Shown: positions 4,774-61,282 of the stretch, piece after piece
Numbering within the stretch: the first letter of the stretch is position 1
How the letters are laid out: every line of letters starts with the position of its first letter
Origin: Naegleria gruberi
Lineage: Eukaryota
Length of the DNA: 64,000 nt
Assembly (NCBI GenBank): GCA_000004985.1
Contig: GG738916.1
Reading direction: 5' to 3' (one strand)
Made by a program: the position numbers and the translations under genes
Notes under the pieces: model-generated
The model's database searches: none
The model's input: the letters and a program-made list of their open reading frames with translations, nothing else
What the model was told of the DNA's origin: nothing

Positions 4774-7700
4774 ATGTTCTCTAACAAAGATAATGATCCC
4801 TTGGCTGTGATCGATAGACTTTTACCTCGTTCATCAGGTTCTAGAAGTTTGTCCTATCTAAATAGTCAAGAGGAATTTAATTCTAATTTTGATGTTTTAA
4901 TTTCACCACCTCGTTTATCCAACACTATTCGTGAGAAAACCATCGGAAGCAATACTCTCCAATTATTTGATGAGACTACCTCGTATTATGAACTCTTCCC
5001 AATTATTGAAAATAAGAGAAAGAAGAATACATCTGATGATTTATTAAAATTTGGTATTACTTGGGAAAGTTTTGTTAAACCAAAGATTAGCTTTAAGAAT
5101 GCTAATCAACACAACAAGGATTTTGATCGTAGAATTGAAGAACAAAACGGAAAGAATTTGTTAGAAAAGTTTTTAACCATGTTGCAAGAACAATTGAGAT
5201 TGGATCAAATTTCATCCAACAAGTATGGTGTTGCTAGTGGACTTTCTAAACAACAAGTTGCTTGTTTGATTGCTAAACAACTTTATATTGCTAAGAGAAA
5301 GTTTAAAAACACTTTATCTGTTAAGAGTGTTTTCAAAGATTTACAAAATATGGGTATTGGCTTGTCACTTGATCCAAAGACACAAAAGTTGGAACAAATT
5401 GTCAAGGAAGTTCACATTTTGAAAGTTTTGGAACATTTGGAAAAGTTAATGGATTGGATTGACAGATATGCCAAACCAAACTTGGCAGAAGAAGAAGCCA
5501 AAAGATATGGTAAAGTTGAAAGACTTATTATCGGAACTGGTGAATCAAAGAATACTAATACATACTTTTCCACTGGTACAGAAAAAGATAATGATGAATA
5601 TGATGATGAAGCTCTAGTAATTGATGAAAATATTGAATTTGGTTCTGCTGATGATATTACTAATGCAGACCATTTGCATAATCAATTTAGAAATATTAGT
5701 ATCTTCTCTAGATCCCAATTGGAAAATGTTTTAGACCAAACTAATCTATTCTCCTTCACTGCACCAACAGAAAATGTTGAAGAAGAGGAGGAAGAAGAAG
5801 AAGAATCTGTTCTTTCTTCCATGTATACTGTTGATTGGTTGGAAAAGGAAGCCAGAAAGATTTGCAAGACACCAGGTATTGAAAATATTGTTTTGGATAT
5901 TTTACAAAAGAAGGGACAAGATGCTGTTCAATTACAATCTCGCTTATTCGATGCTCTTGGAGAAAATGCTTTCGAATTAATGTCAATTATCATGGAACAT
6001 AAGTCAGAAATTTTGGCTGATTTGTATAGAATGCAAATGGCAGATAATGCTGTTGAAGGTATTAACTCATTCTCTCATGTAAAGATGACAACATCCAAGT
6101 TCAAGGATGCTCAAAAGAAGCTCAAGAAGGAAGGTAGAAAAATTGGTAGAAAGAATCAAACCAAGTTTAACCTTTCAGGAGGAAACTCTGAAAATGAGTT
6201 GAATGAACTCAAATCACTCTATCAAACCTTCAAGAAGGAAAAGGATAGAAATGTTCTCAAGGCTGGTGAAGGAGAATCTAGAGTACTTGTTCTCGGAAGA
6301 GATGTTATTCCAGAGTCCAATAATGAGGCTGATAAAGAAACTCAAGAAAGAGTTATCAGACAACCAACTTATGAAGAACACGTCTTCCCTGCTCCAAAGA
6401 AACGTGAAGATAACACACCACTTGTTCCAATTTCTATATTTGAAGATTGGGCTCAACTTGCATTCAAAGGTTATACTCACCTCAATCGTGTACAATCTGA
6501 TGTTTTCTATTCTGCTTATAAAACTAGTGAAAACATGTTGGTTTGTGCTCCAACAGGTTGCGGTAAGACAAATATTGCAATGATGACAGTTTTGAGAGAA
6601 ATTGGCCAACACTTTAAGGGAGGAAAGATTAGACGTGAAGAATTCAAGATTATCTATATTGCTCCAATGAAAGCTTTGGCAGCTGAAATGGTTGAAAACT
6701 TCTCCAAGAGACTTGCACCACTTGGCATTACAGTAAAAGAAATGACTGGTGATATGCAATTGACAAAGAGAGAAGTACAACAAACTCAAATGATTGTTAC
6801 TACTCCTGAAAAGTGGGACGTAACAACCAGAAAAGCCTCTGATCAAGCTTTAATTCAATTGACTAGATTGATCATTATTGACGAAGTTCACTTGTTGAAT
6901 GAAGACAGAGGTCCAGTTATTGAATCTATTGTTGCTAGAACTTTAAGACAAGTTGAAACAACACAAAGTATGATTCGTTTGGTTGGTTTATCTGCTACTT
7001 TACCAAATTATATGGATGTTGCTAACTTCCTCAGAGTTGATCCTCATTCCGGATTGCACTTCTTTGATGGATCCTATAGACCTGTTCCACTTGAACAAAG
7101 TTTTATTGGTGTCAGTATTAGAAATCCAATTGCTAGAAATAAGGAATACAATCAAATTGCCTTCAATAGAACCTTGAAGAATTTGAAGAGAGAAAAACAA
7201 GTCATGGTTTTCGTTCACTCCAGAAAGGAAACTTCCACTACTGCCAAAGCTTTAATTGATTTGGCAGTTGAAGAAAATGCTCTTGATATGCTCACTGCTG
7301 GAGTTAAAATGAGTGAACATACCAGAAAGTGGGTAACTAAATCATTAGAAAAGTGTCACAATAGAGAATTGAAAGAATTGGTACCAAAAGGTCTCGGTAT
7401 TCACCATGCTGGTTTAGTTAGATCAGACAGAAATCTTGTTGAAAAGCTCTTTTCTGAAGGTATTATTAGAGTTTTATGTTGTACCTCTACACTCGCTTGG
7501 GGTGTCAACTTGCCATCATATTGTTGTATTATTAAGGGTACCGAAGTTTATAATGCTGAAAAGAGTACCATGACTGAACTTGGAATGTTGGATATTATGC
7601 AAATTTTCGGTCGTGCTGGTAGACCTCAATTTGACGTTGAAGGTGAAGGTGTTATTATTACTAGTTATGAAGTTTTACCTCGTTACCTCAACTTGTTAAA

Positions 7701-10700
7701 GAGAAATTTACCAATCGAATCACAAATGACACAAGATTTGGCTAACCACTTGTGTGCTGAAATTGTTTTGGGTACAGTGTCCAATGTCAGAGAAGGTTGT
7801 TTATGGTTGAATTATACTTACCTCTTCTTGAGAATGAGACAAAACCCAATGAATTATGGTATTTTACCTGAGGAAGTCAAGCTCGATCCTTCATTGATTG
7901 GTATGAGAAAGAGTCTTATTGAAAAGGCCTGTAAGATGTTACAAGAAAGCAAGATGATTATCTACGACGAAAGAACTGGTGTTGTTTCTGCAACTGATTT
8001 GGGTCGTATCGCCTCTCACTTCTATATTCACTACGAAACAATTCAATTGTACAATGAAAAGCTCCATCCAAAGATGTCCGAATCTGATGTTCTCCACATA
8101 GTTGCTAGTGCCAGAGAGTTCAAGAATATCAAGGTTAGAGAAGATGAATCTGAAGAACTTGCTGAATTATCAGCCAATGCACCAGTTAAAGTTACAAAGG
8201 GACAAGATGAATTCACTGGAAAGGTAAATTTGTTGATTCAAAGTTACATTTCCCATGTTAAGATTAAGAATTCATCTCTCATTTCCGATTGTGCCTTTAT
8301 TATTCAGAGTGTTGGTAGAATTATTAGAGCAATCTTTGAAATTGCTATCAAGGAACGTTGGTCATCTTTAGTTGACAAACTTTTAACCTTGACAAAATGT
8401 ATGGAAAGAAGACAATGGGTATTTGAACATCCACTCAGACAAATGTCAAAGATTCCAACCTTTGCCTTGCAAAAACTTGAAAACAAGAATTTGACCCTCT
8501 CCAAATTAGTTGAATATGAAGAATCCGAGTTGGATCAAGTATTGAATGTTAGAGGAATGGGTAGAATTATTATGGAACATATTGATAGATTCCCTCACTT
8601 GGATTTGGAAGCTAACGTTCAACCAATTACAAGAAATGTTCTTCGTTTCCAAGTTAAAATCAGACCAAACTTTACTTGGGACAAGAAATTGCACGGAGAA
8701 ACAGAGCCTTGGTGGATTTGGGTTGAAGATGAAAACTCTGAATTCATCTATCACTCTGAGTACTTCTTGTTAAAGCATGATGAATATGAAAAGATGATGA
8801 AAGAATCAAGAGATGACGAAGAAGGACCATGCTATTCTCTCAACTTTGTTGTTCCTTTCAGAGAAGATCCAAGACCTCTCTATTTTATTATTAGAGCAGT
8901 TTCTGACAAGTGGATTAGTGCAGAAGCACAAATTACCGTCAATATTAAGGATATTATTTTACCAGAAGGTTTTGCTCCAAGCACTCCAATTCTCCCATTG
9001 GATCCTCTTCCAATCACCTGCTTGAACAATCCTGAATATGAAAAGTTATATGCTGATAAGGGTATCAAATATTTCAACCCTGTACAAACACAAATTTTCC
9101 ACATGACATACCATACTGATGAAAATATTCTTATTGGTGCACCAACAGGTTCTGGTAAGACACTTGCTGCTGAATTGTGTATCTTTAGATTGTTCAATAC
9201 TAAACCAAATCAAAAGGTTATTTATATTGCTCCTCTTAAGGCCCTTGTTAGAGAAAGACTTGTTGAATGGGAAAAGAAGTTTGTTCAAAAGTTAGGCAAG
9301 AAAATGGTCGAATTAACTGGTGATTTCACTCCTGATGTTAAATTATTGAAGGAAGCTGATATTGTTATTACAACTCCTGAAAAGTGGGACGGTATTTCTC
9401 GTAACTGGCAAAATCGTTCCTATGTCAGAGATGTTGGTTTGATTGTCATGGACGAAATTCACTTGCTTGGCAGTGGAAGAGGTGCTATTTTAGAAGTCAT
9501 TACATCTCGTATGAGATATATTTCTTGGAACACTCAAACTCACATTCGTTTGATGGGTCTCAGTACGAACATGGCTAATGCTACTGACTTGGCCGATTGG
9601 TTGGGTGTTGGACAAAGAGGTTTGTTCAACTTTAAGAGTTCTGTAAGACCTGTTCCTTTACAAATTAGTATTTCTGGATTCAGTGGTAAGAACTATTGTC
9701 CAAGAATGAATTCTATGAATAAGCCAGCTTATCAAGCAATTTTGAGACACTCCAACAACAAACCTTGTTTGATTTTCGTTTCTTCCAGAAGACAAACCAG
9801 ATTGACAGCAATGGATTTGATTGGTTATTGTTCTGCTGATGAAAATCCTCACAGATTCTTGAGAATGGACCAAAATGAAGTTATTAGTGCTTTGGAACTT
9901 GCTCGTGACACTCACCTCAAACAATTCTTACAATATGGTATTGGTATTCACCATGCTGGTCTTACTCCATCAGACAAAAAACTCGTTGAAGAACTTTTCC
10001 ACTCTGGTAAGATTCAAGTCCTTGTTGCTACTAGTACTTTGGCTTGGGGTGTCAACTTGCCAGCATACTTTGTCATTATCAAAGGTACTGAATTTTTTGA
10101 ACCATCCACAAAGAGATATGAAGATTATCCACTTGTTGATGTATTACAGATGGCTGGTCGTTCTGGTCGTCCAGGTTTCGATACTGAAGGTAGAGTTTTC
10201 ATCATGGTTCACGATATTAAGAAGAATTTCTACAAGAGATTCCTCTATGAACCATTCCCAATTGAATCAAGTTTGCATACTCAATTGCATGACCACATCA
10301 ATGCGGAAATTGTTTCAGGAACTATCAAGACCAAACAAGATTGTTTGGACTATTTAACTTGGACTTTCATGTTCCGTCGTCTTGTCCAAAATCCATGCTA
10401 TTATGGTATTGAAGATTTGTCCTATGAAGGATTGAACAAGTGGTTATCTACTAAGATTACCAGTATTATTGATGACTTGGAATATGCTGGACTTGTTAAA
10501 GCTATTGATTTGAATCTTGATAAGAAGAAACGTTGGGAAGTTATGGCTTCTCAAACACAATCATCAACCTTTGGTACTATGACAGCTGAGAAGGAAAAGG
10601 CTGAAAAGGAAATCCAAAAGGCCAAGGGAATTTATTTGGAACCAACAGCAACTGGTATTATTGCCAGTTTCTATTATTTGTCATATAGAACTGCTTCTCA

Positions 10701-11744: not shown

Positions 11745-11963
11745 TGCATTGTTTCAGTCACCTCTCTGAAATTCCAGAATATTGTGATCTTTCTCGAAAT
11801 ATGTGTTGAATTTGTAATAACATCATTGCTCTATGAGAGGAGCAGTGAAAGTTACAGAGCAGAGATGAGCACCAACTATGATTGAATAATCACGAAGGAA
11901 TGCAAAAAGAGGATGTGTAGAAGTTTTTGATTGAAGGTTTGGTTGTTTATCGATTTCAGACAT
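11745..11963 (-). pseudogene. Degenerate fragment of the first exon of the mitochondrial carrier gene. This is a copy of 18270..18455 and is frame-disrupted.
   Basis: The minus-strand sequence reads MSEIDKQPNLQSKTSTHP...GAHLCSVTFTAPL, then deletions relative to the right-arm copy break the frame. There is no downstream exon, and the helicase gene 3' end abuts the fragment. Confidence 0.65.
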
Positions 11964-12167
11964 TTTTTTTGAGTTTTACAAAGTTCACCAAATTTATCTT
12001 TTAATAAAATGAAAGAAAAAATGGGGTAAAAACCGAGGTTTCTTTCTCGATGAATATTGAGTTTAAAGATGTGATTTTTGGAGTAGAGATAGTAATACAT
12101 GTCTAGTTTAAGTGGTATAAAGTTGAAAAAGAGAAAATGAAAGAATGTTGAAATGGAAAATAATTTA

Positions 12168-12238
12168 TGCGTCGACCGGGAATTGAACCCGGGTCACGGC
12201 GATGGCAACGCCGTATTCTACCACTAAACCATCGACGC
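12168..12238 (-). tRNA. tRNA-Gly (anticodon GCC)
   Basis: The minus-strand sequence is GCGTCGATGGTTTAGTGGTAGAATACGGCGTTGCCATCGCCGTGACCCGGGTTCAATTCCCGGTCGACGCA. The acceptor stem is 7 bp. The A box TGGTTTAGTGG and B box GGTTCAATTCC are present. The anticodon loop is TTGCCAT. The T-stem CCGGG/CCCGG is intact. A T-run terminator follows. Confidence 0.85.
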
Positions 12239-12451
12239 TTCTTGATATCTATCATAAAATGTTGTTAATCAATAAGCTAATGGAGGTAGCATATTACTGT
12301 TCCAAGTTTTTTTAATAAATGTCACTTAATCCACAATAAATTGCAATTTTAATTCTATTATTTTCACTTCACATTCAATTAATTCAAGAATTTCAAACTT
12401 AATTTACAAAAAAATGTTTTAAAGTGAAAAAGCAAAACCGAGCACAACATT

Positions 12452-14812
12452 ATGGGAGTAAATACGAAAAGCAATACACTGCTTACACTTGTTTCCAAGT
12501 GGGCAGTCTCCAATTCCATTATTATTCCTACCAACAACAATTCTGCATTGGAAAATCATCACAATGTGCAACAATCAACAAGCCTTTTAGATTTGCTTCC
12601 GATGAGAGTAATTGAAGAATTACTATCCTATCAATCGGCCTCTTCATTGGAACATTACTATTCTCTTTATTCTTCATCAAACTCTTCATCATCAAATGTA
12701 TTGATGAATAATAATTATAATATTAATTTGAATAATAGGAAATTAATGCAAAGGATTGTGGATCAATGTTTTGCAAGATTAATCGGAATTCAATTTGGAG
12801 AACCTCTAATTTACTCTAAATTGCAGACAAAACAAGGACAGTTACTGAAGGAAGGTGAGGAATTGGGATTATCATCACTCGAAGACTTGGATGATGAAGG
12901 TTATCATATAACAAGCTATTTTGAAAGTTATTTGCAAAAGTGTTTGGTGAATGTGTTATCGGAGAGACAAATTATTGAATTTGTCAAGATGAGTGATGAA
13001 GAGAATGAAAAAGTGAATGAAGATTGTGTTGTTTATAAGGAATTTCTCGATTTACCAATTGCAGATTCTGTTCTTAATCTTGCATTTTCGGAATTTGATG
13101 AGAACAATGAAATATTTCACTACTCAAAACGTATTTTCAATACGATTGGACAAGCTGTTTCTAAATTTGCTAAATATTCGAAAAAAATATCAGTTCCAAA
13201 GACTCTCTTGAAATATTTGGATGAAAGTTGTTCGATTGAGGAGTTTTTTAGCAATTTTACTCATGTTCATGAAATATCCTTCAGAGATATGAGAGATTCA
13301 GATGTTCAAAATATTATTCATATTCTCAAGCAGTGTAATAATGTAGAATCACTTTCATTTTATCATACATTTTTCACAGAGTCCAATCTTGCAATGGTTT
13401 TAGATATTTACTCAGACGCCATCTATGTGCCTCCAACAGATTATTCAGTCTATTTTAGTGATGATATCATGGAAAAGAAACCAATAGAACCAGCAAATGC
13501 CATGGTATATGATGAATTTGATTTTTATAGTGACATTCTGTCTCCTTCAGTCCCAATCGAAACAACATTGGAATCCAATAAGAAAAGAGAAAATAATAAC
13601 TTGTTTATAGAAGACGAGCTTGATTCCAAAAAGAGAAAAACAGATCCACCCAAACTCAAGAAACTCTCATTCAGATCGATATCTCTGTATCACTCATCCT
13701 GTAAATCAATTAGAGAAATATTGGAATATAACTCAACAGATATGCATGGAGTGGAGCTGAATTTTTCCTTCAATGAAATGAGTTCAGTAATGGCCAATGA
13801 GATGCTCTCAGGAGAATCCATAAGAAATATAACAAGATTAATACTCACAGAAAACAATGTAGAAAATGACTTTCTCATTCACCTCTCATCTCAAAAAGAC
13901 TTTTTCAAAAGTATCAAACATCTAGATTTGAGTAATAATAACTTTGTTGGAACTATTGGAGTGAATGCATTATTCACAGCATTGAATAACTATTCTTCAG
14001 GTATTTCTTTGGAACATTTGAATATTAGTCACAACAAACTCGGGGGAACAGACCTCCTCAATGACAATTATCGAATTGTACACCAAAATGAATTTAGCAA
14101 ATTGATAGAATACTTGAATGGGCCTAATTGCAACTTGAAAGAACTTTTGATCTCAAATTGTGATTTAACCCAAACAATGGTCGAATCACTCCTACTTGCT
14201 GTGGCCAATAATTCATCCCTAACCACATTGGACATTTCCAATACTCATTCCCTCCGTTTGTGTGGTTCTTCTCTGTCTCTAATGATCACCTCCAACAGCC
14301 CCCTGAAGAAAATGTCCATATCCACATGCTCCCTCAATGAAATTTCAGATTCTCTCTTTAATTCTCTCCTCTCCAATACCTCTCTTAGATATTTAGATTT
14401 GAGTGGAAATCGTTTCAAAGAATATGGTGGGAAGAACATTCTGACCTATCTCAGAACCAAAATTGATCAGCAACTCACAGAAAAACGAAACAAACATCAA
14501 CCATTCCATTTGAATACTCTCGATTTATCCTCCAATACTCTAACAGAACAATTTTGTCTCCAATTGACCCAACTCTTTGCCTCTCACTCCACGGATACAA
14601 CTGAACTATTGGACAAACACTATCTTCAAGCTAATGGATTACCTCTCATTGACATTCTCCAATTGGAAAACAACTTTTTCTCTCCTCATCTCACTCTGAG
14701 ATTAAAACAAGCAGCTCTCGACAGTTTCATTGTGAATCGAATTGTTCTCACCAATGAAGATGGATCCTCTGAGGTATTTTCTAATGTTTGTGATGGAACC
14801 ACTCTCACTTGA
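12452..14812 (+). CDS. Leucine-rich-repeat protein with an N-terminal F-box-like motif, 786 aa
   Basis: The F-box-like motif is LLDLLPMRVIEELLSY. Multiple LRRs are present (LDLSNNNFVGTIG, LNISHNKLGGTDL, LDLSSNTLTEQ, LDLSGNRF). There are poly-S/N tracts. It is a single ORF with an ATG start. Confidence 0.7.
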   Translation: MGVNTKSNTLLTLVSKWAVSNSIIIPTNNNSALENHHNVQQSTSLLDLLPMRVIEELLSYQSASSLEHYYSLYSSSNSSSSNVLMNNNYNINLNNRKLMQRIVDQCFARLIGIQFGEPLIYSKLQTKQGQLLKEGEELGLSSLEDLDDEGYHITSYFESYLQKCLVNVLSERQIIEFVKMSDEENEKVNEDCVVYKEFLDLPIADSVLNLAFSEFDENNEIFHYSKRIFNTIGQAVSKFAKYSKKISVPKTLLKYLDESCSIEEFFSNFTHVHEISFRDMRDSDVQNIIHILKQCNNVESLSFYHTFFTESNLAMVLDIYSDAIYVPPTDYSVYFSDDIMEKKPIEPANAMVYDEFDFYSDILSPSVPIETTLESNKKRENNNLFIEDELDSKKRKTDPPKLKKLSFRSISLYHSSCKSIREILEYNSTDMHGVELNFSFNEMSSVMANEMLSGESIRNITRLILTENNVENDFLIHLSSQKDFFKSIKHLDLSNNNFVGTIGVNALFTALNNYSSGISLEHLNISHNKLGGTDLLNDNYRIVHQNEFSKLIEYLNGPNCNLKELLISNCDLTQTMVESLLLAVANNSSLTTLDISNTHSLRLCGSSLSLMITSNSPLKKMSISTCSLNEISDSLFNSLLSNTSLRYLDLSGNRFKEYGGKNILTYLRTKIDQQLTEKRNKHQPFHLNTLDLSSNTLTEQFCLQLTQLFASHSTDTTELLDKHYLQANGLPLIDILQLENNFFSPHLTLRLKQAALDSFIVNRIVLTNEDGSSEVFSNVCDGTTLT

Positions 14813-14996
14813 TTGCTGAAAGGGTTGTTGTTTCATTTAAAAAATTCGTTCCTTATTCTTCGGATCGGAATATTGTTTTTGATAACTAGAGAAAACAATC
14901 TGTAGTTTGCTGTAACGGTTTGGTTTGGTTTGGCGCCAAAAACAACTGTAAGAAAATTCCCTCCAAATTGCAACAGAAATCAAAAAAAAAGAAAAT

Positions 14997-16499
14997 ATGA
15001 GTACAATCAGCAAGGGCTCAAAGGCCTCAACAACATCACAAAAGAAGGACAAACTGAAGGCTCTTCTCTGTGATAAAGTAATTGAATTGGTTAAAAAAGG
15101 AGGCAGTGCTCAAATACCTGCCGAAGCATTGAGTTTGATCAGTAGGGATGTAGATGGTCTTATGAAGGAAGGAAAAGGTAGCGAAGCTGACTTGAAGGTT
15201 ATTGCCAACAAGGTAAAAGGAATGCTATCAAAAGCATCTTCAACAGCATCCTCTAGACATTCTATTCCTCCTCTCGATACACACAGTGTAGCTTCTAAAA
15301 AGAGTTCAAGCTCTCACCAAAGCGAAAGATCCGAAATTGCAAGAAGTACCACTTCTAACCAACAACAAGAAACAGAAGAAGAACCTGCTTATGCTATTGG
15401 AACTTTGGGTGGATTATTCGGAGGTGGTATCAAAAAGACTGCCAAACCAAACAAGCCACCAAGTGGTGATGACATTTGGGCTGCCATTGCAGTTAAGGAC
15501 ACTGAGGAATATCACAATGAACAACATCAAGAGTACGTACGTCAAAAACAAAAGCAAGCAGAGTTGAGAGAAACATTGCAAAAGCAAAAGGAAGAAAACC
15601 ACCGTCAAGAAGAAATCAAGATTAAGAAGGAACAAAAATACATTGAAGAGCAAAAAGCAAGAGCTCAACGAGAAGCAGAAGAAGAAAAGAAGAGAGAAGA
15701 GGAGAGAAGATTGAGAATATTGGAAGAAAAGAGAGTAAGAGATCAACAATTAGAGCAATCCAAGATTAGAAAACAAATGATCGATCAAAAGAAGAAGGAA
15801 GAAGAAGAAGAACTTGTCAACAAACTTAAGAAACAAATCAATAAGGAAAAGGAGAAGGAAGTCCAAACTAGGGAAAGCAACAAGAAGGAACTTTCTTCAT
15901 TTTTGGCTTACAACGAAACCATTAAACAAAGAAAAGAAGAAGAAGCTAAGAAGGAAATTGAAGAAGACTTGAAATCGTTCAAGCTCTTTGAAGAAAAGCA
16001 ACGTCAACAAGAATTAAGAAGAGAGATGGAAATGAAGAAAATGTACGAAAGACAAAGTTTATCAATTGCTCTCTCTAACAAGTTAGAAGCCAATTTGGAT
16101 GAAAAAGCTAAGGAAGACGAAATTAAGGCAGATAGAATTCATTCTGAAATGGAAATGAAAAAGGAGAATGAAGACAAGAAGAAGAGGGATCGTTTACAAA
16201 AACAAAAGGAAGAAATGATGGATACATTGGCCAGACAAATTCAAGGCAAGTTTGATAATAGAAAGGAAGTTTTAATGGAAGAACAGAGACGTAAGGAACA
16301 AATTGAAGAAGATTTAAGAAAGGCAGAACAAGAAGAACTGGATAGAAAGAGAAGATTTAAAGAAGGTTTGAAGAATCAACGTGAATCTTTATCTGAACAA
16401 GTTAAAGAAAAGCAACACGTAACCATGAAACAAAGTGGTATGTCAGATATTGAAATGAAGCTCAATGCTGATAGACTGAAAAAGATTAACATGTTGTAA
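14997..16499 (+). CDS. K/E/R-rich coiled-coil protein, 500 aa, low complexity, function unknown
   Basis: A long uninterrupted ORF with heptad-like EEKKR repeats such as EEQKARAQREAEEEKKREEERRLRILEEKR. It sits in a clean intergenic context with an ATG preceded by an A-run. Confidence 0.55.
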   Translation: MSTISKGSKASTTSQKKDKLKALLCDKVIELVKKGGSAQIPAEALSLISRDVDGLMKEGKGSEADLKVIANKVKGMLSKASSTASSRHSIPPLDTHSVASKKSSSSHQSERSEIARSTTSNQQQETEEEPAYAIGTLGGLFGGGIKKTAKPNKPPSGDDIWAAIAVKDTEEYHNEQHQEYVRQKQKQAELRETLQKQKEENHRQEEIKIKKEQKYIEEQKARAQREAEEEKKREEERRLRILEEKRVRDQQLEQSKIRKQMIDQKKKEEEEELVNKLKKQINKEKEKEVQTRESNKKELSSFLAYNETIKQRKEEEAKKEIEEDLKSFKLFEEKQRQQELRREMEMKKMYERQSLSIALSNKLEANLDEKAKEDEIKADRIHSEMEMKKENEDKKKRDRLQKQKEEMMDTLARQIQGKFDNRKEVLMEEQRRKEQIEEDLRKAEQEELDRKRRFKEGLKNQRESLSEQVKEKQHVTMKQSGMSDIEMKLNADRLKKINML

Positions 16500-16554
16500 A
16501 TTTCTTGGATATTCGAATAGAATAATCAAACAAATTGTACATAAAACCTAGAGT

Positions 16555-17259
16555 TTAATTTAAACTACCTAAGTAGTCTTCCTTGATGGTACCTACTGCG
16601 AACAATCCTGTTGGTTCGACTTTCATACCCATAATCTTTAATCTTACATCCTTTTCTTCCATGATGGAAACCTGATGATTGAATTGATGAAAATTAAATT
16701 GAATAATTATTCAAAGTTCAAATTGATGATGAAGATTCGTGATGAAAATTTAGGTATTGTTGTTGCATGTTAAAAGATTGAATTGTTGTGAAAATACATA
16801 CTTGAGCTTCTTCCGAAATAAATCTTGGAGGAGTATGATGGCCATCATACTTCATATCATCTGGAACAGCATGACTACTAACAAAAACATTCAATGGACC
16901 TAGATAATCAATGAATTATATGTCACACAACCACTGCAATACTTACCAACACTTGCAAAAAATCCAACTGGTGTTACTTTATATACAACAGCATCACAAA
17001 CTTCTCCTTTGAAAGGCTTGAATACTATAGCTTTATAATTAATAGGGAATGTAGCATATCCTGATGATTCTCCAATTTTACCTTGTCCAATTTTTGTGAT
17101 TTCTGTAACAGAAACAATATATCCATCTCTTCCTGTACATTGTCCTTCAACGTCGTTTTGAAGACGAGCACGAAGTGTACGAGTAAGATCAGGACCAAAG
17201 AATTTAGGATGCAAACGAATATTCTTGTCCAAATCCACCTTTTTTAATAAAATCCGCAT
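16555..17259 (-). CDS. RPB7: RNA polymerase subunit Rpb7 (Rpb7/RPC25 family), three exons: 17259..16947, 16899..16802, 16671..16555
   Basis: Exon 1 reads MRILLKKVDLDKNIRLHPKFFGPDLTRTLRARLQNDVEGQCTGRDGYIV...AIVFKPFKGEVCDAVV...GFFASV, then a GTAAGT donor. The 47-nt intron ends TAG. Exon 2 reads GPLNVFVSSHAVPDDMKYDGHHTPPRFISEEAQ, then GTATGT. The 130-nt intron ends CAG. Exon 3 reads VSIMEEKDVRLKIMGMKVEPTGLFAVGTIKEDYLGSLN and ends in a stop. The total is 175 aa, and it aligns along the whole length of human RPB7. Confidence 0.8.
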
Positions 17260-17617
17260 TGATCATTATATTCATCAACAATAATTATATTGATCACATT
17301 GTCATCATGATGAAAATACACAATAATTGATTTCAATACAAATCGACTCTCCCAACAATACCTACCAAGAAGAACATTTTTTTGTTTGTGTTTTCCGTTA
17401 AAAATAAATTTGCTTGCTTTTTTACTTCACAAATTTCATCCTCTTTGTGTGATGGTAAATGTATGAAGTTGAAAAATTAAAATCTTCATTCTCTGATCAT
17501 GATGATGTGATGATGCGAAGGGTTGATGTATTTTCATCGAACAGCAGGCGGTGATGACCTTATTTTCTATATAGTACTCCAATCAATTTTGAAAATAAAA
17601 ATAATTTTATTTAAAAA

Positions 17618-17794
17618 ATGGCAAAGAAGAAGGCAAAGACTATCCTCATCAAACTCGTTTCCAGTGCTAAAACTGGCTTTTTCTACACTACCAACAAGAA
17701 TACACAAAACATTCAAAGAAAATTGGCTTTCAGGAAATACGACCCAATTGTTGATAGACACGTTTTGTTCACTGAAGCTAAGGTTAAGAAGTAA
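17618..17794 (+). CDS. Mitochondrial-type ribosomal protein bL33, 58 aa. This small gene is absent from the supplied ORF track.
   Basis: ATG at 17618. The product is MAKKKAKTILIKLVSSAKTGFFYTTNKNTQNIQRKLAFRKYDPIVDRHVLFTEAKVKK, then a stop. It closely matches the bacterial/organellar L33 consensus (MAKKGKR..VKL.S.AGTG.FY.T.KN....KLE..KYDP.V..HVLF.E.K). Confidence 0.7.
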   Translation: MAKKKAKTILIKLVSSAKTGFFYTTNKNTQNIQRKLAFRKYDPIVDRHVLFTEAKVKK

Positions 17795-17944
17795 ATTTTT
17801 GGATTCCGCATTATCACCCGATAGTAATATCACTTTCTAGTTCCTTCCGAATAATTATTTAAAATTAACGATAAAAACTCTATAAAAACTCTTTAAAGGA
17901 TATTTAATGTTTCTAATTGAATAGAATCATTTGGAAAATATACA

Positions 17945-18528
17945 AGAAAATCATTAGTTATTCATTAACAACATTTTATGATAGATATCAAGAAGCGTCG
18001 ATGGTTTAGTGGTAGAATACGGCGTTGCCATCGCCGTGAATAGGGTTCAATTCCCGGTCGACGCATAAATTATTTTCCATTTCAACATTCTTTCATTTTC
18101 TCTTTTTCAACTTTATACCACTAAAACTAGACATTTATTACTATCTCTACTCCAAAAATCACATCTTTAAAATCAATATTCATCGAGAAAGAAACCTCGG
18201 TTTTTACCCCATTTTTTCTTTCATTTTATTAAAAGATAAATTTGGTGAACTTTGTAAAACTCAAAAAAAATGTCTGAAATCGATAAACAACCAAACCTTC
18301 AATCAAAAACTTCTACCCATCCTCTTTTTGCATTCCTTCGTGATTATTCCATCATAGGTGGTGCTCATCTCTGCTCTGTAACTTTCACTGCTCCTCTACA
18401 TAGAGCAATAGATGTTATTACAAATTTCGAGAAAGATCACAATATTCTGGAATAATCAATTGTATTACTGAGGTTGTAAAGAACGAAGGTATTTCGTTTC
18501 TGTGGAGAGGAAACGTTACATATTGTTT
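17945..18528. repeat. Right arm of the inverted duplication, about 585 bp. It contains the second tRNA-Gly and the functional-looking 5' end of the carrier gene.
   Basis: See the left-arm entry. This arm carries the extra 76-nt block. Confidence 0.8.
17995..18065 (+). tRNA. tRNA-Gly (GCC), second copy with an altered T-stem
   Basis: Identical to the left copy except in the variable region and 5' T-stem: GTGAATAGGG in place of GTGACCCGGG. This introduces an A.G mismatch and a U.G pair in the T-stem. The A and B boxes are intact. A T-run lies downstream. Confidence 0.7.
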
Positions 18529-19063
18529 CAGAGAGGTGACAGTTGTTGCCTTAAATTTTTCTTTGCATGAGTCATTTAAGAAAATGCTTCCTCAATATTC
18601 TCCAGTCACTAATCAACTAGAATACTTATCTGGTAGTTTGGCAGGTCTTTCCACATTATCATTCCAATATCCATATGATTACATTTTTACTAAGGAATTT
18701 CATTATTTAAAACCAGGATTCAGAGCTTGTTTTAATGGCCTCTCAGATGTTGCACCCATTTCCATATTATATCGCGGTTTATATTTTGGTCTTTTTGATA
18801 TTTGGAAGGAAATGAGAAGAGACCACTACTCATTAACAAAGAAAGTGGTAGTAGCCCAAGGAGTTTCCATTATTTCTGGAGTTTCTGTTCGTCCTTTTCG
18901 ATTGGCTACAGATCGAGCATTAGGATATGATAGAATTCAAAAGAAATTCTACAAAGGAACTTTTAGAGAATTATGGAAGATTCGAAATGAACAAGGAGTG
19001 AAAGGTTTATTTAAGGGTGTAATGAGTGGATATCACACCTGCCTGTACTTTGATTCTGTTTGA
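18270..19063 (+). CDS. Mitochondrial carrier family (SLC25) protein, ADP/ATP-carrier-like. There is an apparent +1/-2 frameshift near 18440..18455.
   Basis: Frame A (18270..18455) reads ...FLRDYSIIGGAHLCSVTFTAPLHRAIDVITNFEKDHN. The adjacent frame reads QYSGIINCITEVVKNEGISFLWRGNVTYCFREVTVVALNFSLHESFKK.... This is the classic first carrier repeat YKGIIDC...EQG..SFWRGN. No intron can join the two frames. It is either a sequencing indel or a disrupted gene. Confidence 0.65.
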
Positions 19064-19208: not shown

Positions 19209-21164
19209 CTATTTATTAGAATTCAATGAATGGTATTCAACTCTCTTACTAGCGAGAGGTTTATCAGTGCTATCAACATCATCATTTGTGAGAAACACTG
19301 GAACAATCTTGTCCATTAATGTATGTCTTTGAATGGAACAATAGACAGATAAGAGTTTCTCCTTATTCATATATTCAGAAATTGTTTCCACAGGTTCAAC
19401 ATCAGATGAAGTTTGACTATTCCTATAGATGGAGACCAATGTATCACAATACTTTTCAATTCTTTCCTTATCTACAATACAAGATTTGTGTAATAACCAT
19501 GAGCTAGCGCCAAATCTTGCTCCTAACATGTAACCACTAATGGCTGCAACAGTATCTGTATCATAACCATTCGAAATGATTGAATAGAGAAGTAATTCAG
19601 GGAATGGAATATTTGGCAATGCCAATTTCAAATGGTAAGCTTTGGAAGGATGAGCTGCCAAAATAATTCTAGGATTTTCTGGCATTACCGAAGCAACCAA
19701 ACAATGAATACCTCCCAAGAGACAGAATCCTTGATTGACATTTGCTTTCATGGCCTTCTTCTTGACACTCTTTGCTAGTTCAGAAATCTTTTCTCTGCAA
19801 TTCTTGAGCAATAATTCACTTTCTCTATTTTCCTTAATAAATTCAAATACTTGTTCCAAAATATTTGAAACATTGTGAATCGATTGATTCATTGGTTCAT
19901 AAATTTGGAATTGATTCTCAACCCGATCTCCCTTCTTCAATTCAGGGCAATAACTTCTCTGGAGCCACAATTTTTCATGTTTCTGAACAATGAGTGGAAG
20001 ATTATCCAAGATCCAATCAATGGTTTCTTGGCTATTACCATCTTGAATGAATTTGTAAGCAATTACATTGGATGCAAATGTCACTGATGAGCTTTCAATA
20101 GTTGAGTGAGTTGTCAAACATTGCGCATATGAGAAATTTGACAGAATGTCAATATACTTGTCATTAGTAGTAGAAGACTCGATAGAGGCATTCAATTTCT
20201 CCAATAATTCCAATTTTCTCTTTTCCTTTCTTGATAATATTTCTGAACTTTGCTTAACTTCGAATAAATTATTAGATTCCCTTCTTTCAATTCCAAGAAC
20301 TTTTTGTAAAGCAAAACATGTTGGAGCAACACAACATCTCATCATTCCACCAATTCCAGTAGTTTTAGACCCACTTTCATAGCAAGATTTGTTCTGGTTG
20401 ACTATTTTCTTCAATGCCCTCGAAGTATTGGATCCAAATTGTCTGAAAGCTTGAGAATTCTTTGCAACTAATTCGTCACCAAGTTTACAATCACCTTTCG
20501 TAAATCCTTCATAGAGCCATTTTCTCCAATAACTTAGAAATTCGGTAATATTCTCATGATCTTTCGAATATTTTACAAATTCAAGGATGGAATTGATCAG
20601 TGCGAAACCTTGTTGAGTATCGTCTGAGTGAATACCAACTGGACGAATGTGTCTCAGAAATAGCTCAGTACCACTTTCCTTTCTTTTCACACCGACAACC
20701 TTTTTGGCATTTTGCAGATGGGAGAAATCTTTAGAATCCATCAATTCCTTGCTTGGGAATCCTTTCTTTACGATTAGTCCAAAATCGAATAGTAAAAATT
20801 CCTTATCACCATAAAACTTTCGTATTTCACCTGATTTCCATCCTTCAATAGGACACCCAGCTACATCACCATAAACTTGACCCCAAATCGAACCAACCAA
20901 TCGATCAAGAATTTCATCCTTTTCGTCTCCATTCGAATATCTTTCGGAAGATGAATTTCCCTGCGTAGGACCATTCGTTTTCAACACTTGATCAACATAA
21001 TTCTGTATCACATCAGCATTGTAGAGAATTCTATTTTCAAATGATGAACTTTCGTCCTCCTCTTCACATTCTTGATTTTCTTCTAGATTATTTTCTTCTT
21101 GATTTTCCTGATCATCGTTGAATTTAATTTCTTCTCTGTCTTTCAGTTCTTGTTGTGAAATCAT
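19209..21164 (-). CDS. ADP-ribosylglycohydrolase (ARH/DraG) family protein with an acidic N-terminal extension, 651 aa
   Basis: Near the N-terminal part of the domain: GSIWGQVYGDVAGCPIEGW. Near the C-terminus: GYDTDTVAAISGYMLGARFG, the ARH metal-binding D-x-D-T motif. It is a single ORF. Confidence 0.6.
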   Translation of the reverse strand: MISQQELKDREEIKFNDDQENQEENNLEENQECEEEDESSSFENRILYNADVIQNYVDQVLKTNGPTQGNSSSERYSNGDEKDEILDRLVGSIWGQVYGDVAGCPIEGWKSGEIRKFYGDKEFLLFDFGLIVKKGFPSKELMDSKDFSHLQNAKKVVGVKRKESGTELFLRHIRPVGIHSDDTQQGFALINSILEFVKYSKDHENITEFLSYWRKWLYEGFTKGDCKLGDELVAKNSQAFRQFGSNTSRALKKIVNQNKSCYESGSKTTGIGGMMRCCVAPTCFALQKVLGIERRESNNLFEVKQSSEILSRKEKRKLELLEKLNASIESSTTNDKYIDILSNFSYAQCLTTHSTIESSSVTFASNVIAYKFIQDGNSQETIDWILDNLPLIVQKHEKLWLQRSYCPELKKGDRVENQFQIYEPMNQSIHNVSNILEQVFEFIKENRESELLLKNCREKISELAKSVKKKAMKANVNQGFCLLGGIHCLVASVMPENPRIILAAHPSKAYHLKLALPNIPFPELLLYSIISNGYDTDTVAAISGYMLGARFGASSWLLHKSCIVDKERIEKYCDTLVSIYRNSQTSSDVEPVETISEYMNKEKLLSVYCSIQRHTLMDKIVPVFLTNDDVDSTDKPLASKRVEYHSLNSNK

Positions 21165-36194: not shown

Positions 36195-38612
36195 ATGTCA
36201 CTTGTTATGTTCAAAGTTCAACCTGTCTGTCAAAATCAAAAAACATCAAAAAAAATGTTTTGCTTTCTCTTGCCCAATCGGAATAGTAGAAATAACAACA
36301 ATACCATCACTTCCATCTCTACCACTTCAAATGTAAATGACCACCTTTCGTCCGAATTATTGTCAATTATACTTTCGTATTTTTCATTCGAAGAGAAAAT
36401 TAGTGTGATGAGATTTGTTTCTAAAACTTGGTTTACTTTCTGTTGGATTAGTACTGATTCCATCAATATTGATGCTAAATGGAGTGAACAATATGTAAAA
36501 TATATTGTAAACAAAGTTATTCAAAAACAAACTCTTCCATATTTGGAAGAATTGACTGTTTCTTCAGAACATGCTCTTACAAATGATTTTCTAGTGGGTG
36601 ATTTCCTAACAAAATCAAGAAAATTGCAAAGACTCTTCTTGAAACAACCCATCAATTCATCTCAATTATTTAATGTCACCAATCATTTGAATAATTTGAC
36701 AAACATTTATTTGAATATTCATAATGTTAAGAATGAAACTCTCATTTCAACATTTAAAGATTTGGATTTTAATGATTTGAGACCAAAGACTGTAATATTG
36801 CCAAAACTCAAGTCGTTAACTTTACAAAATGCACATTTGGATGCTGAACATTCAGCATCGATCCTATTTCTCTTCCTTTTTAAGAATATTTTAGTGAACT
36901 TTTCTAATCATTTGCAATCCAGAACTGATCTTCCATCTACCATTGATTGTAATTTGTTGGAAGAAGTTGAATTAATCAAGTGTGATGGAATTGATGAGAT
37001 TTTTGAAAAATTGGAAAAGATTACAAAAGAATATTGTGAAAAGGAATTAAAGATTTATGGATCTACTGTTGAAAAATCATTCAGAAATTGCATTCCCCTC
37101 AATTCATTGACATTCAAGTTTTGTTCTGATGTTGGAGACAAGGCATGTGTTTCTAGTTCCAAATTATTTAAGAATCTCAACAAGTTGTGGTTTGATAAGA
37201 ATAAGAAACCAACAGAGTTGACCTTTGGTGTTGCTCCACAAAGTGGTTTTACAGGTATTTTGCACGAGAACAATGGATTGGTGTCTGTCTTGTATCAATT
37301 CAGAGATTCTTTGCGGAGTTTAAAGCTGTCAGAGTTTCTTTTCCATACATCAACCACTCCAGAGGATACACCTTACAATTTTACAAAAGTATTGAGTTTA
37401 TTGACGAATTTGAAAGATATTCAACTTGATTTAGGAAGCACCAATACATCAGTCTCGACTCAATCTGTATTTTTAGCTCAGAACATGTTTGAAATTTCGA
37501 ACAGTGTTGAAAGAATAGTTCTCAATGAATGTGGTGATATATTGACACAAGAATTTTGGGATGTCATGACTGGAAACAATGTTAAAGACGAGACTACCAT
37601 TTTTTATCCTAATCTACACACACTCACTGTTCACAGTGGCAAAATGTATAACATTACCTCTAGTTTAATTAGAGAAAATGCATTCCCTAAATTGGAAAAT
37701 GTTACCTTTGACTATTGTTGCAGAATTGAGAGTTTGTACAAGGATGCAAAAGAATCCTCAACTTCAACCTTCGAACAGAATGAAGAAGTCATCACCACCA
37801 ACAAGAAACAATTTAAAAACATTACATTCGATAGATGTATCAGATTGAAACAAGGAATGAATCAATTTATTTCCATGTGCAATCCAAAACTGATTGATAC
37901 GTTTGACTTTTTGCAAATGAAAGAATGCACACGTTATGATTGGTTAGGTAAATTGACCAGTGTGAAGCATGTCAACTTGACCAGCAATATTAATCTCAAG
38001 GATGATGATTTGAAGTATTTGGCAAATTGTGAACAACTTGTCTCACTTTCTCTAGCTCACAACAAGACTCTGAATGGTTCTGGACTCAAATACCTGGCCG
38101 ATTCTACAAGAATTTGTGAAACTTTGCAGTTCCTTAATGTAGATTGGTGTTCCAAATTTGAAGATCAAGCTCTAGAGCATATTTCAAAGTTTACCAATCT
38201 AAGACAATTACACATTTTACATGTAAAGATATTGTCTCGCTTTGATTTATTGAAGAGCTTAACCAAGTTGGAAACTCTGTTGCTTGTTCGTTGTTTCAAC
38301 TTGTCTGACGAGAGTATTATTCCAGTCATTGAAAATTGTAAAGATCTGAAGGTGTTATCACTTCATGGAGGGCATCACGGTTACAATGAAGCCATGTCCA
38401 ATAAGATTTTGAAAGCAATTTCTCAAAATTTACACAATATCAGACATTTGACTGTTAATTTTGCTCCAATCACCAACGATGGCGTTAAATTGCTTGCCAA
38501 ACTTCATTACTTGGAATATTTGGATGTAATGAGAAGTAAGGCATCCGATAAGATTTTAAAATACTTCCCAAACACTTCAGTTGTTCTTGATATCAAACAA
38601 ATATCCCAATAA
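36195..38612 (+). CDS. F-box/LRR-repeat protein, 805 aa
   Basis: F-box: LSSELLSIILSYFSFEEKISVMRFVSKTWFTFCW. C-terminal RNI-like LRRs: LKYLANCEQLVSLSLAHNKTLNGSGLKYLADS, LKVLSLHGG. Confidence 0.7.
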   Translation: MSLVMFKVQPVCQNQKTSKKMFCFLLPNRNSRNNNNTITSISTTSNVNDHLSSELLSIILSYFSFEEKISVMRFVSKTWFTFCWISTDSINIDAKWSEQYVKYIVNKVIQKQTLPYLEELTVSSEHALTNDFLVGDFLTKSRKLQRLFLKQPINSSQLFNVTNHLNNLTNIYLNIHNVKNETLISTFKDLDFNDLRPKTVILPKLKSLTLQNAHLDAEHSASILFLFLFKNILVNFSNHLQSRTDLPSTIDCNLLEEVELIKCDGIDEIFEKLEKITKEYCEKELKIYGSTVEKSFRNCIPLNSLTFKFCSDVGDKACVSSSKLFKNLNKLWFDKNKKPTELTFGVAPQSGFTGILHENNGLVSVLYQFRDSLRSLKLSEFLFHTSTTPEDTPYNFTKVLSLLTNLKDIQLDLGSTNTSVSTQSVFLAQNMFEISNSVERIVLNECGDILTQEFWDVMTGNNVKDETTIFYPNLHTLTVHSGKMYNITSSLIRENAFPKLENVTFDYCCRIESLYKDAKESSTSTFEQNEEVITTNKKQFKNITFDRCIRLKQGMNQFISMCNPKLIDTFDFLQMKECTRYDWLGKLTSVKHVNLTSNINLKDDDLKYLANCEQLVSLSLAHNKTLNGSGLKYLADSTRICETLQFLNVDWCSKFEDQALEHISKFTNLRQLHILHVKILSRFDLLKSLTKLETLLLVRCFNLSDESIIPVIENCKDLKVLSLHGGHHGYNEAMSNKILKAISQNLHNIRHLTVNFAPITNDGVKLLAKLHYLEYLDVMRSKASDKILKYFPNTSVVLDIKQISQ

Positions 38613-53114: not shown

Positions 53115-53567
53115 CGCTGCATTCTTGATGATTCACCCACTTTCGTACATGTGATGAATTTAGCCAATTTACCCTTGAGAAATTATAATTATCTCTCTGA
53201 AGTTATTTTGAACCATTTATTTGCTTTCAAATATCACCAAGTTCAAATCAAAATAAATAGAAAAATATTGTAATAATGAAAACCTAAATTATTAAGGTAA
53301 TACACTCAAAAGTTCAGACTTTATCATCCAATACATTCTAAAACAAAGACCTGCAACTCTTTCAATATTTGCAACTGTTGTAATTGATTCAGTATTGCAG
53401 AATTATTATTGGTGGGTTGCAACACACAAATTCAGCACTGCACTGTTACATTCTTAATAAGGTTACGTTCTGAATATAATCTTGAAGCATTAAATTGTCA
53501 AAGATGAAATATTCAGCTAAATGCATCCTAAAAGTCTTTTCGTGCCCTTTTTCAAAAAATTAAAAAA

Positions 53568-55320
53568 ATGCTTTCTTTTTTACGCAAGGCTTTGACACAC
53601 AACAATAACAATAATAATAACAATAAGAATAACAATACTGATAACAATAATAATAATAATAGTGATAACAATCATTTTATTCCTAATGATATTTTAATAA
53701 TAATATTTCAATTTCTTAATCAACAAGATTATATAAAAATATCATTTGTTTGTAGATATTGGAGATTTGTTGTTCAACAACCATTCCGAAAGGAATTTAC
53801 AAATTTTATTTTAAACTCTTCATATTCAATAGTTTATTGTACATTTATTATTAATGCATTTGAGTTTTTTAAATTCTTTTCTTCCATAACATTATAACAC
53901 TGTACCTGAATCAACATTTAAAACTCTGCTTTCTTCAATGAAATTACAAAGTTTATTTATTGATTCTTGTGTTGTTAAAAATAATATACCATTCAATTCT
54001 GTAAAACAATCTAATATAACTGAATTAGGATTAAATTGTAAAATGAAAAAGAAAGATTTACGTGCTTTATTTATTGTAATTCCAAATTTGAAACATTTAA
54101 GTTTAGGAATGGTAGTAACCGAATGTTTAATTAACACAGAATCATTTCTGAGTACACATTGTCATAAATTAGAAACACTCCATTTACAATTATTACCTGA
54201 AAATCAAAAAAAAATTGTAAAATTATTACATGGAATATTTAATCCATCAACAACAATATCCAATCTCATTGATATTAGAATATTTGTAACAGATAATAAT
54301 CCAACAAGTAATAGAAAATTAAATAATTTTACATTTAATTTTAATTCATTTCCAAATTTAAAATATTTATTTCTTGATATTACCTATATTTATACATTAG
54401 AATCAATTAGTAATGTATTAAATTCAAATAATATTTCAAAATTACAAGAATTTGGATTTGGAACTATTAGAAAAGCTATTGAAAAATTACAATTTAATTC
54501 GAGTGAAAATTTACAAAATTTAAAAAAATTATTTTTAAATAGAACAGAAATGATGACAAATATTGATAATCTTCCTTCATTAGAATTATTATATATAGAT
54601 GAATATGCAAAAAAACATTATTCCGCTACAAAATATTCAAAACCATGGAATTTAGCATCTAATGTGAAAATGCCATCTCTAAAATATTTACATTTAAATC
54701 TTTTTAATGAAACTCATTTACCTGATCGATTAAATGTGGAACCATTTAAAAATATTAAATATTTTTATTTTGAATCTGAATATAATATTGATTTATCAGA
54801 ATTGAGTAAATTAAATTTAGAAATATTAATTCTTAAAATTTCTGAAGAATATAATAAGAATATACTTCATCACATTTCTAAAATATCAACATTGAGAGAT
54901 TTAACATTTAGTAATCCTATTAGTGAAATTGATTTGAAATTACTTTGTAAATTACCAAATTTAGAATATCTGAATATTAGATTGGAATTTTATAGTGAAA
55001 CATCTTTTACTTTTAATTCACTAACTACACTCTCAATTCATTCAAAAAATTTGAAAGGATTAAATTTCTTTCAAATATCAAATTTACCAAAATTTAAAAC
55101 TTTACTAATTCGTAATCCTTATGATAATAACTATACATGGTGGTTGCAACCATTATTTCCAAATTTACAAATAATTAAAGCAAGTACTGACAGTTTTGGA
55201 ATATTTTTAACATCTCAATATAATGATGATATGAATTTTGGTGAGTATGAAGTTTCACAAAGAGCAGCAAATCATTTCCAAAATGAAAACGTATGGCTCT
55301 TTCCAAAAAAATTTATTTAA
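53568..55320 (+). pseudogene. F-box/LRR gene, copy A of a tandem pair. It is disrupted by a small deletion that creates a stop after codon 109; the ORF resumes at 53938.
   Basis: About 95% identical to copy B (59373..61145). Near 53880, copy A reads ttataacactg where copy B reads ttatttttccataatactg. This gives a TAA in frame. The poly-N tract at the N-terminus differs in length between the copies. Confidence 0.55.
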
Positions 55321-56031
55321 TATTAAAGCTCTGTATCAGAGGTTTCTCCTTGGTCACAGTTGATTTTTTAGAAGGATCTCCTTCAGCCAATATCTTTGGT
55401 TTCAAATGGTGAATTCAAGCAAGCCAATGCTGAGAAGGCCAAAGTTGACAATGATTATGTTTGTAAACATTTCAAATCCTATTTTTCAAAAAATTCAAAT
55501 AAAAAGTTGGTACATCATCATAGTTGTTATTTATCATCATTATAAAAGCCTCTTGGATGGTTCAAGAGATGCTGAATTCAAATGTTATAGAGATTGAACA
55601 GAATATTGTTGTACATTATATTTATTGTACCCAAGAAGGAACTTTTGGAATAAAGGACAGTTCCTTCAAGTTTACCAATTCAAATGCCTTTCATTTGGAA
55701 TAAGCCAAGCTCCCAGGAACTCACCAAGATTATGAAAAAACTGGTAACCAAGTGGAGACAACAAGGTATTATTTTGTTCCTAAAATTCAGAAAGAAAAGG
55801 GTGTCTTTACTCCCTGACTCAAACTGAAGCAATTTAGACTTCAAACGTAATATTTCCATCATTTGCAAGCCTAAGAACTGAAAAAGGATAAGGAATTGCT
55901 TTAGTGTTGAGAAATGAAGGAGAATTTTGTGAAGAATTAAGACAGGCCAAAATTAAATCCTTACAAGTCTGATTTCTAACTTGGAAAATTTATTTATTTA
56001 TTGATTGGCCCATGGTTTTACCTCATTTCCA

Positions 56032-61145: not shown

Positions 61146-61282
61146 CATTAAAGCTCTGTATCAGAAGTTTCTCCTTGGTCAAATCTGAATAGTGAATTCA
61201 AGTAAGGCCAAAGTTGACAATGTTCAATGAATAATGTTTGTAAACATTTCAAATCCTATTTTCAAAAAATTCAAATAAAAAA

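Follow-up and report, generated by a model that had tools for sequence, protein, structure and literature searches.

Recent inverted duplication and reciprocal decay as the probable history of a paired tRNA-Gly(GCC) locus in Naegleria gruberi

The 64,000-nucleotide window of contig GG738916.1 that we analysed, from the Naegleria gruberi NEG-M assembly (GCA_000004985.1), contains two arms of roughly half a kilobase that stand in inverted orientation on either side of a gene-bearing spacer, each arm carrying a tRNA-Gly(GCC) gene and the 5' end of a mitochondrial carrier gene. We consider it likely that this arrangement is a recent inverted segmental duplication which originated by template switching and was followed by complementary decay of both copies. 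The locus belongs to a well-known class, that of small inverted segmental duplications that include a tRNA gene and are followed by pseudogenization, and the reciprocity of the decay is a useful twist: the canonical tRNA and the ancestral carrier sequence are found in the copy whose position is derived, whereas the original is damaged in both. The evidence from N. gruberi comes from one NEG-M assembly, which presents one orientation of the spacer.

The two arms were recovered independently by three methods. A repeat finder reported an inverted pair of 440 nt at 98% identity (11836-12275 and 17958-18397) with a 34-nt continuation (11771-11804 and 18420-18453), and self-BLAST gave a single inverted match (11771-12282 against 18453-17952, 513 nt, E=0) and no further copies of the arm sequence in the 64 kb. 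Gapped local alignment set the limits at 12282..11757 (reverse complement) on the left and 17952..18540 on the right, with 517 of 528 aligned bases identical (97.9%), 11 mismatches, three of which are adjacent (18040-18042), and five indels. These are an additional C at 12276 in the left arm, A18398, A18410 and 73 nt (right 18453-18525) that are missing from the left arm, and 11 nt (left 11811-11801) that are missing from the right. The homology is unbroken over 43 nt 5' of the tRNA and ~475 nt 3' of it, and a weak possible extension on the left reaches as far as 12305. The left arm occupies most of a 790-bp intergenic region, of which ~250 bp would be left without it.

A palindrome produced in assembly would show identical arms that coincide with contig joins. 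Because these arms differ and there are no N runs nearby (none within 43 kb, the nearest being at 61762), the inverted repeat is a genuine diverged inverted duplication and not an artefact of that kind. An earlier note on this DNA, written from the sequence alone, had reported the inverted match, called it a diverged inverted duplication and dismissed a palindrome artefact; the three alignments, the five indels and the distance to the gaps bear it out on each of these points. The note had also described the left copy as decayed, and here the frame-shifting deletion and the missing block are both real, although the block measures 73 nt and not 76.

Each arm was said to contain a full tRNA-Gly, and ARAGORN and the Rfam tRNA model locate both genes (Table 1), the right copy with an altered T stem. 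The left tRNA has no non-standard pairs and is 100% identical to its orthologues in N. lovaniensis (L003 9248-9318) and in the Naegleria-like metagenome contig L004 (2065-2135). The right tRNA has three adjacent bases unlike those of the left copy and of both relatives, and scores 13 bits lower. This change, CCC>ATA at 18040-18042, begins at the final base of the variable loop and takes in the first two positions of the 5' T-stem strand, and the stretches that tell the copies apart are GACCCGGG and GAAUAGGG. One T-stem pair is broken, as flagged by the Rfam model, and the neighbouring pair, read from the alignment, is now a U-G wobble. Since the left tRNA is the same as that of N. lovaniensis and L004, the T-arm change is derived, and the right tRNA-Gly(GCC) may be impaired. 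The arms do not differ in the internal promoter boxes or in the T runs downstream, and minimum-free-energy folding returned a cloverleaf for neither copy and hence is uninformative.

The carrier gene is broken in both arms, and the breaks are largely complementary. In the right arm, the open reading frame (ORF) that begins at ATG 18270 ends at a stop at 18452-18454, and carrier homology resumes in another frame from ~18404, where QYSGIINCITEVVKNEGISFLWRGN matches the ADP/ATP carrier segment YRGIMDCFKRVIQEEGVYFLWRGN; the frame shift falls between 18404 and 18455, and no single ORF extends over the three carrier repeats. The lesions on this side are an inserted A (18410) and the loss of 11 nt between 18423 and 18424. 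The left fragment has a 1-nt deletion, corresponding to A18398, and is without the 73 nt, while it has kept the ancestral 11 nt (11811-11801) and has no A18410. When the three small indels are combined in all eight ways, a single one, with A18398 as in the right arm and with the left-arm state at the other two sites (no A18410, 11 nt present), gives an open ORF, of 267 aa. Across the junction the reconstructed ORF, which reads APLHRAMMLLQIQHIFRERSQYSGIINC, is colinear with an ADP/ATP carrier (APLHRAMMLLQ...YSGIINC against APIERVKLLLQ...YRGIMDC), and with reconstruction its match to Pfam Mito_carr rises from 72.4 to 83.3 bits. Its residues 1-258 share 51% identity with P0215, a metagenome protein of 292 aa that clusters at 90% identity with the N. 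gruberi paralog EFC45802. The second repeat of the reconstructed ORF is ~20 residues short, as is that of EFC45802, and this shortness is a family trait and not a sign of decay.

The reconstructed protein is like the ADP/ATP carriers (PF00153) in its three-repeat layout and its colinearity, at 29% identity; it is unlike them in having PLHRAM, PYDYIF and PFRLAT where Px[DE]xx[KR] is expected, and the local copy is frameshifted and terminates early. An intron was considered as the cause of the break in the ORF and rejected: each of 58 frame-open GT/GC..AG excisions loses conserved carrier residues, and the best of them (18414-18472, 59 nt) has splice sites that are poor compared with the canonical introns of Rpb7, with the frameshift itself confirmed by an environmental contig described below. 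The earlier note had seen a first exon in 18270-18455 and a right copy that continues into a real gene, and neither claim is supported. That ORF is cut short by frameshifts and does not reflect an exon and intron, two derived indels break the frame, and the public gene model for the carrier (EFC model, 18584-19063) comprises just 159 aa. It is worth flagging that this N. gruberi model is a fragment of a frameshifted gene, and at the right arm the carrier gene reads as a pseudogene in this assembly.

Independent support for the reconstruction comes from an exhaustive HMMER search with the downstream carrier ORF, which found a 127-aa protein (P0067) on a 718-bp ENA metagenome contig of a close relative (L005; ERZ929261 k127_79601). 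L005 spans the 3' end of the tRNA, the spacer that follows it and the 5' end of the carrier gene and runs on into the gene body, with 12 differences from the NEG-M right arm in roughly 420 aligned bases. Because it is colinear with the right arm and past it into the carrier gene body, L005 is an orthologue of the right-arm locus. It encodes APLNRAMMLLQIQHIFRERSQYSGIINC, which is exactly the reconstructed carrier junction; the left arm thus made it possible to rebuild a dead carrier, with this environmental contig as confirmation.

As an outgroup, L005 assigns all six polarisable substitutions (18123, 18135, 18172, 18317, 18350 and 18358) to the right arm, together with the added A18410 and the 11-nt deletion. 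The left arm is derived at the 1-nt A deletion and the 73-nt gap only, with zero substitutions. Six more differences are specific to L005, which also has a 7-nt deletion of its own at ~581-640 that shifts the frame after ...QYSPVT, and which keeps 15 nt (encoding MVVQL) that are absent from the NEG-M copy. The carrier seems to be decaying independently in the NEG-M and L005 lineages, its loss presumably covered by the paralog. A 29-mer common to both arms and L005 had no match in the scanned JGI metagenome contigs.

Comparison with related genomes, which the earlier note had proposed as a way to recognize the ancestral arm, puts the right-arm tRNA at the ancestral place. On the N. lovaniensis contig that carries the helicase orthologue, the order is cyclic nucleotide (cNMP)-binding gene, tRNA-Gly, bL33, Rpb7 and coiled-coil gene, and L004 has the same order. 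The distance from bL33 to the tRNA is 255 nt in L004 and 200 nt in the N. gruberi right arm, with the same orientation in both. Since the carrier gene continues from the right arm and the succession of bL33 and tRNA is common to L004, the right arm is the original by position and the left arm is the new copy. The claim that the left arm is derived therefore stands with respect to position, given its truncation and the synteny, but the left arm is the better preserved at six of six polarisable substitutions. No carrier orthologue was found at the syntenic places in N. lovaniensis, Willaertia and L004, and in the relatives a cNMP-binding protein gene lies downstream of the tRNA instead of the carrier. 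Willaertia magna has the helicase alone in common with the window and hence is uninformative.

In N. lovaniensis the spacer between bL33 and the cNMP-binding gene likewise contains the orthologous tRNA-Gly(GCC), which there has the opposite orientation to the tRNAs of L004 and the N. gruberi right arm. Because it is inverted relative to both, the orientation of this tRNA has changed more than once at the locus. From the helicase to the LRR gene at 36282-38594, the next one that the two species share, the distance is 24.6 kb in N. gruberi (11662-36281) and 4.8 kb in N. lovaniensis (L001 16880-21707), where the stretch contains three unrelated genes, encoding a class II aminoacyl-tRNA synthetase, a 355-aa protein and a BTB/SPRY protein. 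Past those three genes, N. lovaniensis has orthologues of the genes at 36.3-41.4 kb of the window. Compared with N. lovaniensis, gene order is thus rearranged over 11.66-36.28 kb, with the left arm at the edge of this synteny break. In N. lovaniensis the coiled-coil/Rpb7/bL33 block and the ADP-ribosylglycohydrolase gene are 15-26 kb upstream of the helicase, and to pass from an order like this to that of N. gruberi takes at least 2-3 events under any model. Intergenic DNA cannot be aligned between the species and the arms are 98% identical, so the duplication is much younger than these interspecies rearrangements.

We propose that the starting locus consisted of bL33, tRNA-Gly(GCC) and then a divergent carrier gene resembling ADP/ATP carriers, and that an inverted copy of ~0.55-0.59 kb of it was placed 5.7 kb upstream, in the interval that separates the helicase from the LRR gene. 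The copied unit would have run from 43 nt 5' of the tRNA through the tRNA and the 204-nt spacer after it to ~270 nt into the carrier ORF. Rather than transposition, the most likely process is template switching in the course of templated repair or of replication, of the microhomology-mediated break-induced replication (MMBIR) or fold-back type. Just outside the left arm, and overlapping it by one base, is a 10-nt patch, ATTGTTTCAG, that repeats on the same strand the bases 18522-18531 from the end of the right arm; the junction thus reads 10 nt forward and then backward from 18540. We infer that this patch is the signature of a fold-back or template switch. In a comparison with 31-mers from random window positions, scored by their longest end-anchored match in 18440-18640, a patch match of at least 10 nt had an empirical P of about 0.001.

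After the copying event, the left copy would have retained a canonical tRNA and most of the ancestral bases, with a carrier piece that was truncated from birth and that came to bear the 1-nt and 73-nt deletions; the 73-nt gap could be either a second switch at birth or a later deletion. The right copy would have acquired the three-base change in the tRNA T arm, the two carrier frameshifts and the six substitutions. The net outcome would be that the best tRNA-Gly gene of the locus has changed both its place and its direction, and that the carrier reads as a pseudogene. Movement as a transposon or by retroposition was also considered and rejected: there is no target-site duplication (the longest word common to the flanks is 6 nt), no A tail and no extra copy in the window, and the duplicated unit starts 43 nt upstream of the tRNA.

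Table 1. Positions of the arms, their genes and the neighbouring features in the 64-kb window
Feature	Position	Strand	Remarks
Left arm	11757..12282	-	526 bp; by position the derived, truncated copy; ends within the carrier coding sequence of the right arm
Right arm	17952..18540	+	589 bp; by position the original; continuous with the carrier gene body
Junction patch	11748..11757	+	10 nt, outside the left arm; same-strand copy of 18522-18531
tRNA-Gly(GCC), left	12168-12238	-	ARAGORN; Rfam tRNA model 66.9 bits, every stem paired
tRNA-Gly(GCC), right	17995-18065	+	Rfam tRNA model 54.0 bits (threshold 29)
Carrier 5' fragment, left arm	11757..11962	-	Dead; ATG 11962-11960
Divergent carrier gene resembling ADP/ATP carriers	18270..19063	+	Frameshifted in the NEG-M assembly
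Spacer	12283..17951		5,669 bp
LRR protein gene	12452-14812	+	Pfam LRR
Lys/Glu-rich (coiled-coil) ORF	14997-16499	+	500 aa
Rpb7	16555-17259	-	Three exons
Mitochondrial bL33	17618-17794	+	
ADP-ribosylglycohydrolase-family protein	19209-21164	-	651 aa, downstream of the right arm

The four spacer genes listed in Table 1 are those described before, an LRR gene, a coiled-coil gene, Rpb7 and bL33, except that the F-box attributed to the LRR protein was not detected by Pfam at E<=0.01. The Lys/Glu-rich ORF is without a Pfam match. Public NEG-M records that match window proteins exactly are those of the helicase (EFC37605), the LRR protein (EFC37606) and EFC37643. The helicase ORF (2,295 aa) contains an internal direct repeat at 74% identity (7372-7549 and 9919-10096), which is consistent with two tandem helicase cassettes. 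Elsewhere in the window, a direct repeat of 1.8 kb and 95% identity (53550-55356 and 59355-61181) lies within a stretch of 21-27% GC. Each of its copies carries an F-box/LRR ORF, which is intact in one (59373-61145, 590 aa) and split into ORFs of 109 and 460 aa in the other, which is probably frameshifted. These repeats flank minus-strand RCC1/BTB ORFs (56032-58504), with N runs at 61762 and 61827-61876.

Several observations weigh against a duplication with complementary decay as we propose it. Six substitutions on the right and none on the left depart from a simple molecular clock (binomial p=0.03, or p=0.016 with the tRNA cluster added as a further event), and all six are transversions, so that part of the decay could be Sanger consensus error. 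The asymmetry could be due to chance, to an ancestral-like allele that served as the source of the left arm, to a locally raised mutation rate or to a low-quality consensus in the right arm. Naegleria strains are heterozygous and variable in ploidy, being diploid or polyploid (PMC9928731), and the left arm could have been copied from another allele of the tRNA/carrier locus that is still intact, which would explain the branch with zero substitutions. It is also formally possible that a GT..AG excision of 59 nt (18414-18472) leaves the right ORF open. The mechanism depends on one short junction patch that was noticed after the fact, the orientation of the coiled-coil/Rpb7/bL33 block with respect to the ADP-ribosylglycohydrolase gene is the reverse of that in N. 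lovaniensis, as an inversion predicts, and N. gruberi is represented by a single assembly sequence.

The orientation of that block raises the question of whether the spacer itself was inverted. In a staggered-break inversion of the 5.7-kb spacer, staggered cuts around the tRNA/carrier 5' segment would be filled in and so duplicate the segment at both ends. This would account for an inverted duplication of otherwise unique sequence that exactly flanks a segment, for a coiled-coil/Rpb7/bL33 block opposite to that of N. lovaniensis relative to the ADP-ribosylglycohydrolase gene and for a left arm at the synteny break beside the helicase. The model is well documented, for 17 of 29 Drosophila inversions (Ranz et al. 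2007, PMC1885836), and our locus is like those breakpoints in that unique genic sequence is inverted-duplicated at the ends of a segment with one copy truncated and decaying. However, it needs bL33 to have been beside the helicase beforehand, with no tRNA by bL33, whereas the succession of bL33 and tRNA at 200-255 nt is ancestral and would have to be recreated by chance. The bL33-tRNA junction that should be new in that model is thus ancestral here, and an insertion without inversion fits better. The orientation of the block carries little weight, because several older rearrangements have occurred between the species. Given the ancestral adjacency, we rate such an inversion below an inverted insertion and consider it unlikely. 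Alternatively, the locus could have begun with a pair of older tRNA-Gly(GCC) genes, inverted relative to each other, that recombined and whose homology was then carried into the flanks by a conversion or break-induced tract; tRNA genes are identical 71-nt repeats, and the N. lovaniensis tRNA is inverted in place, so that orientation changes recur at the locus. This would need two events with coinciding boundaries, while the continuous homology of 43 nt on the 5' side and ~475 nt on the 3' side suits one copying event, and we find such a history very improbable.

It is also conceivable that the arms are still active. At ~0.5 kb, 98% identity and 5.7 kb apart, they should in principle suffice for homologous recombination, with the spacer flipping in a population or culture and gene conversion from arm to arm, and the four spacer genes are wholly inside the spacer, so both orientations would be viable. 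We think this quite unlikely, as the single assembly has a single orientation, the differences extend along the whole arm and include five indels with no obvious conversion tract, and no alternative contig has these proteins, there being one contig per protein cluster. An exact-protein look-up for alternative assemblies returned none for the LRR protein, the 651-aa glycohydrolase, the carrier fragment and bL33. A live switch in this free-living eukaryote that flips the 5.7-kb block, with the tRNA-Gly genes as recurrent hotspots of breakage and repair, would also explain the inverted N. lovaniensis tRNA, and it is doubtful to the same degree. We give very little credence to an artefact of assembly, in which a chimeric clone or mis-joined haplotype reads made the left arm or the right-arm differences are poor consensus. 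The heterozygosity and diploid or polyploid state of the genus (PMC9928731) could favour such errors, and random miscalls could produce six transversions plus small indels such as those of the right arm. Yet there are no gaps near either arm, the left arm has unique, gene-bearing sequence on both sides and has indels of its own along with ancestral states seen in L005, so that it was not copied from right-arm reads, and an 11-nt deletion and CCC>ATA are unusual for base-calling errors.

A recent inverted duplication with decay of both copies remains the history that we favour. It offers a clean, datable example of a nuclear tRNA gene that changes place and orientation, and it illustrates that a truncated, nominally derived copy can keep ancestral sequence better than its parent; its wider importance is modest.

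Templated insertions and fold-back inverted duplications arise from replication template switching, by MMBIR or fork stalling and template switching (FoSTeS). The N. gruberi locus resembles the products of these processes in that nearby sequence is copied in inverted orientation, with a short templated patch, 1-nt microhomology and no target-site duplication. It differs from them in its spacer, which is short or lacking in classic fold-backs and is 5.7 kb here, and in that the signature is at one junction only and is 10 nt long. More generally, tRNA genes in eukaryotic nuclear genomes turn over by duplication and then loss of one copy. Here the original copy is damaged and the new copy is canonical, which would mean that the functional gene has moved and been re-oriented; what sets this locus apart is that it is at an intermediate stage of such turnover, and that the duplicated unit also took in part of a protein-coding gene.

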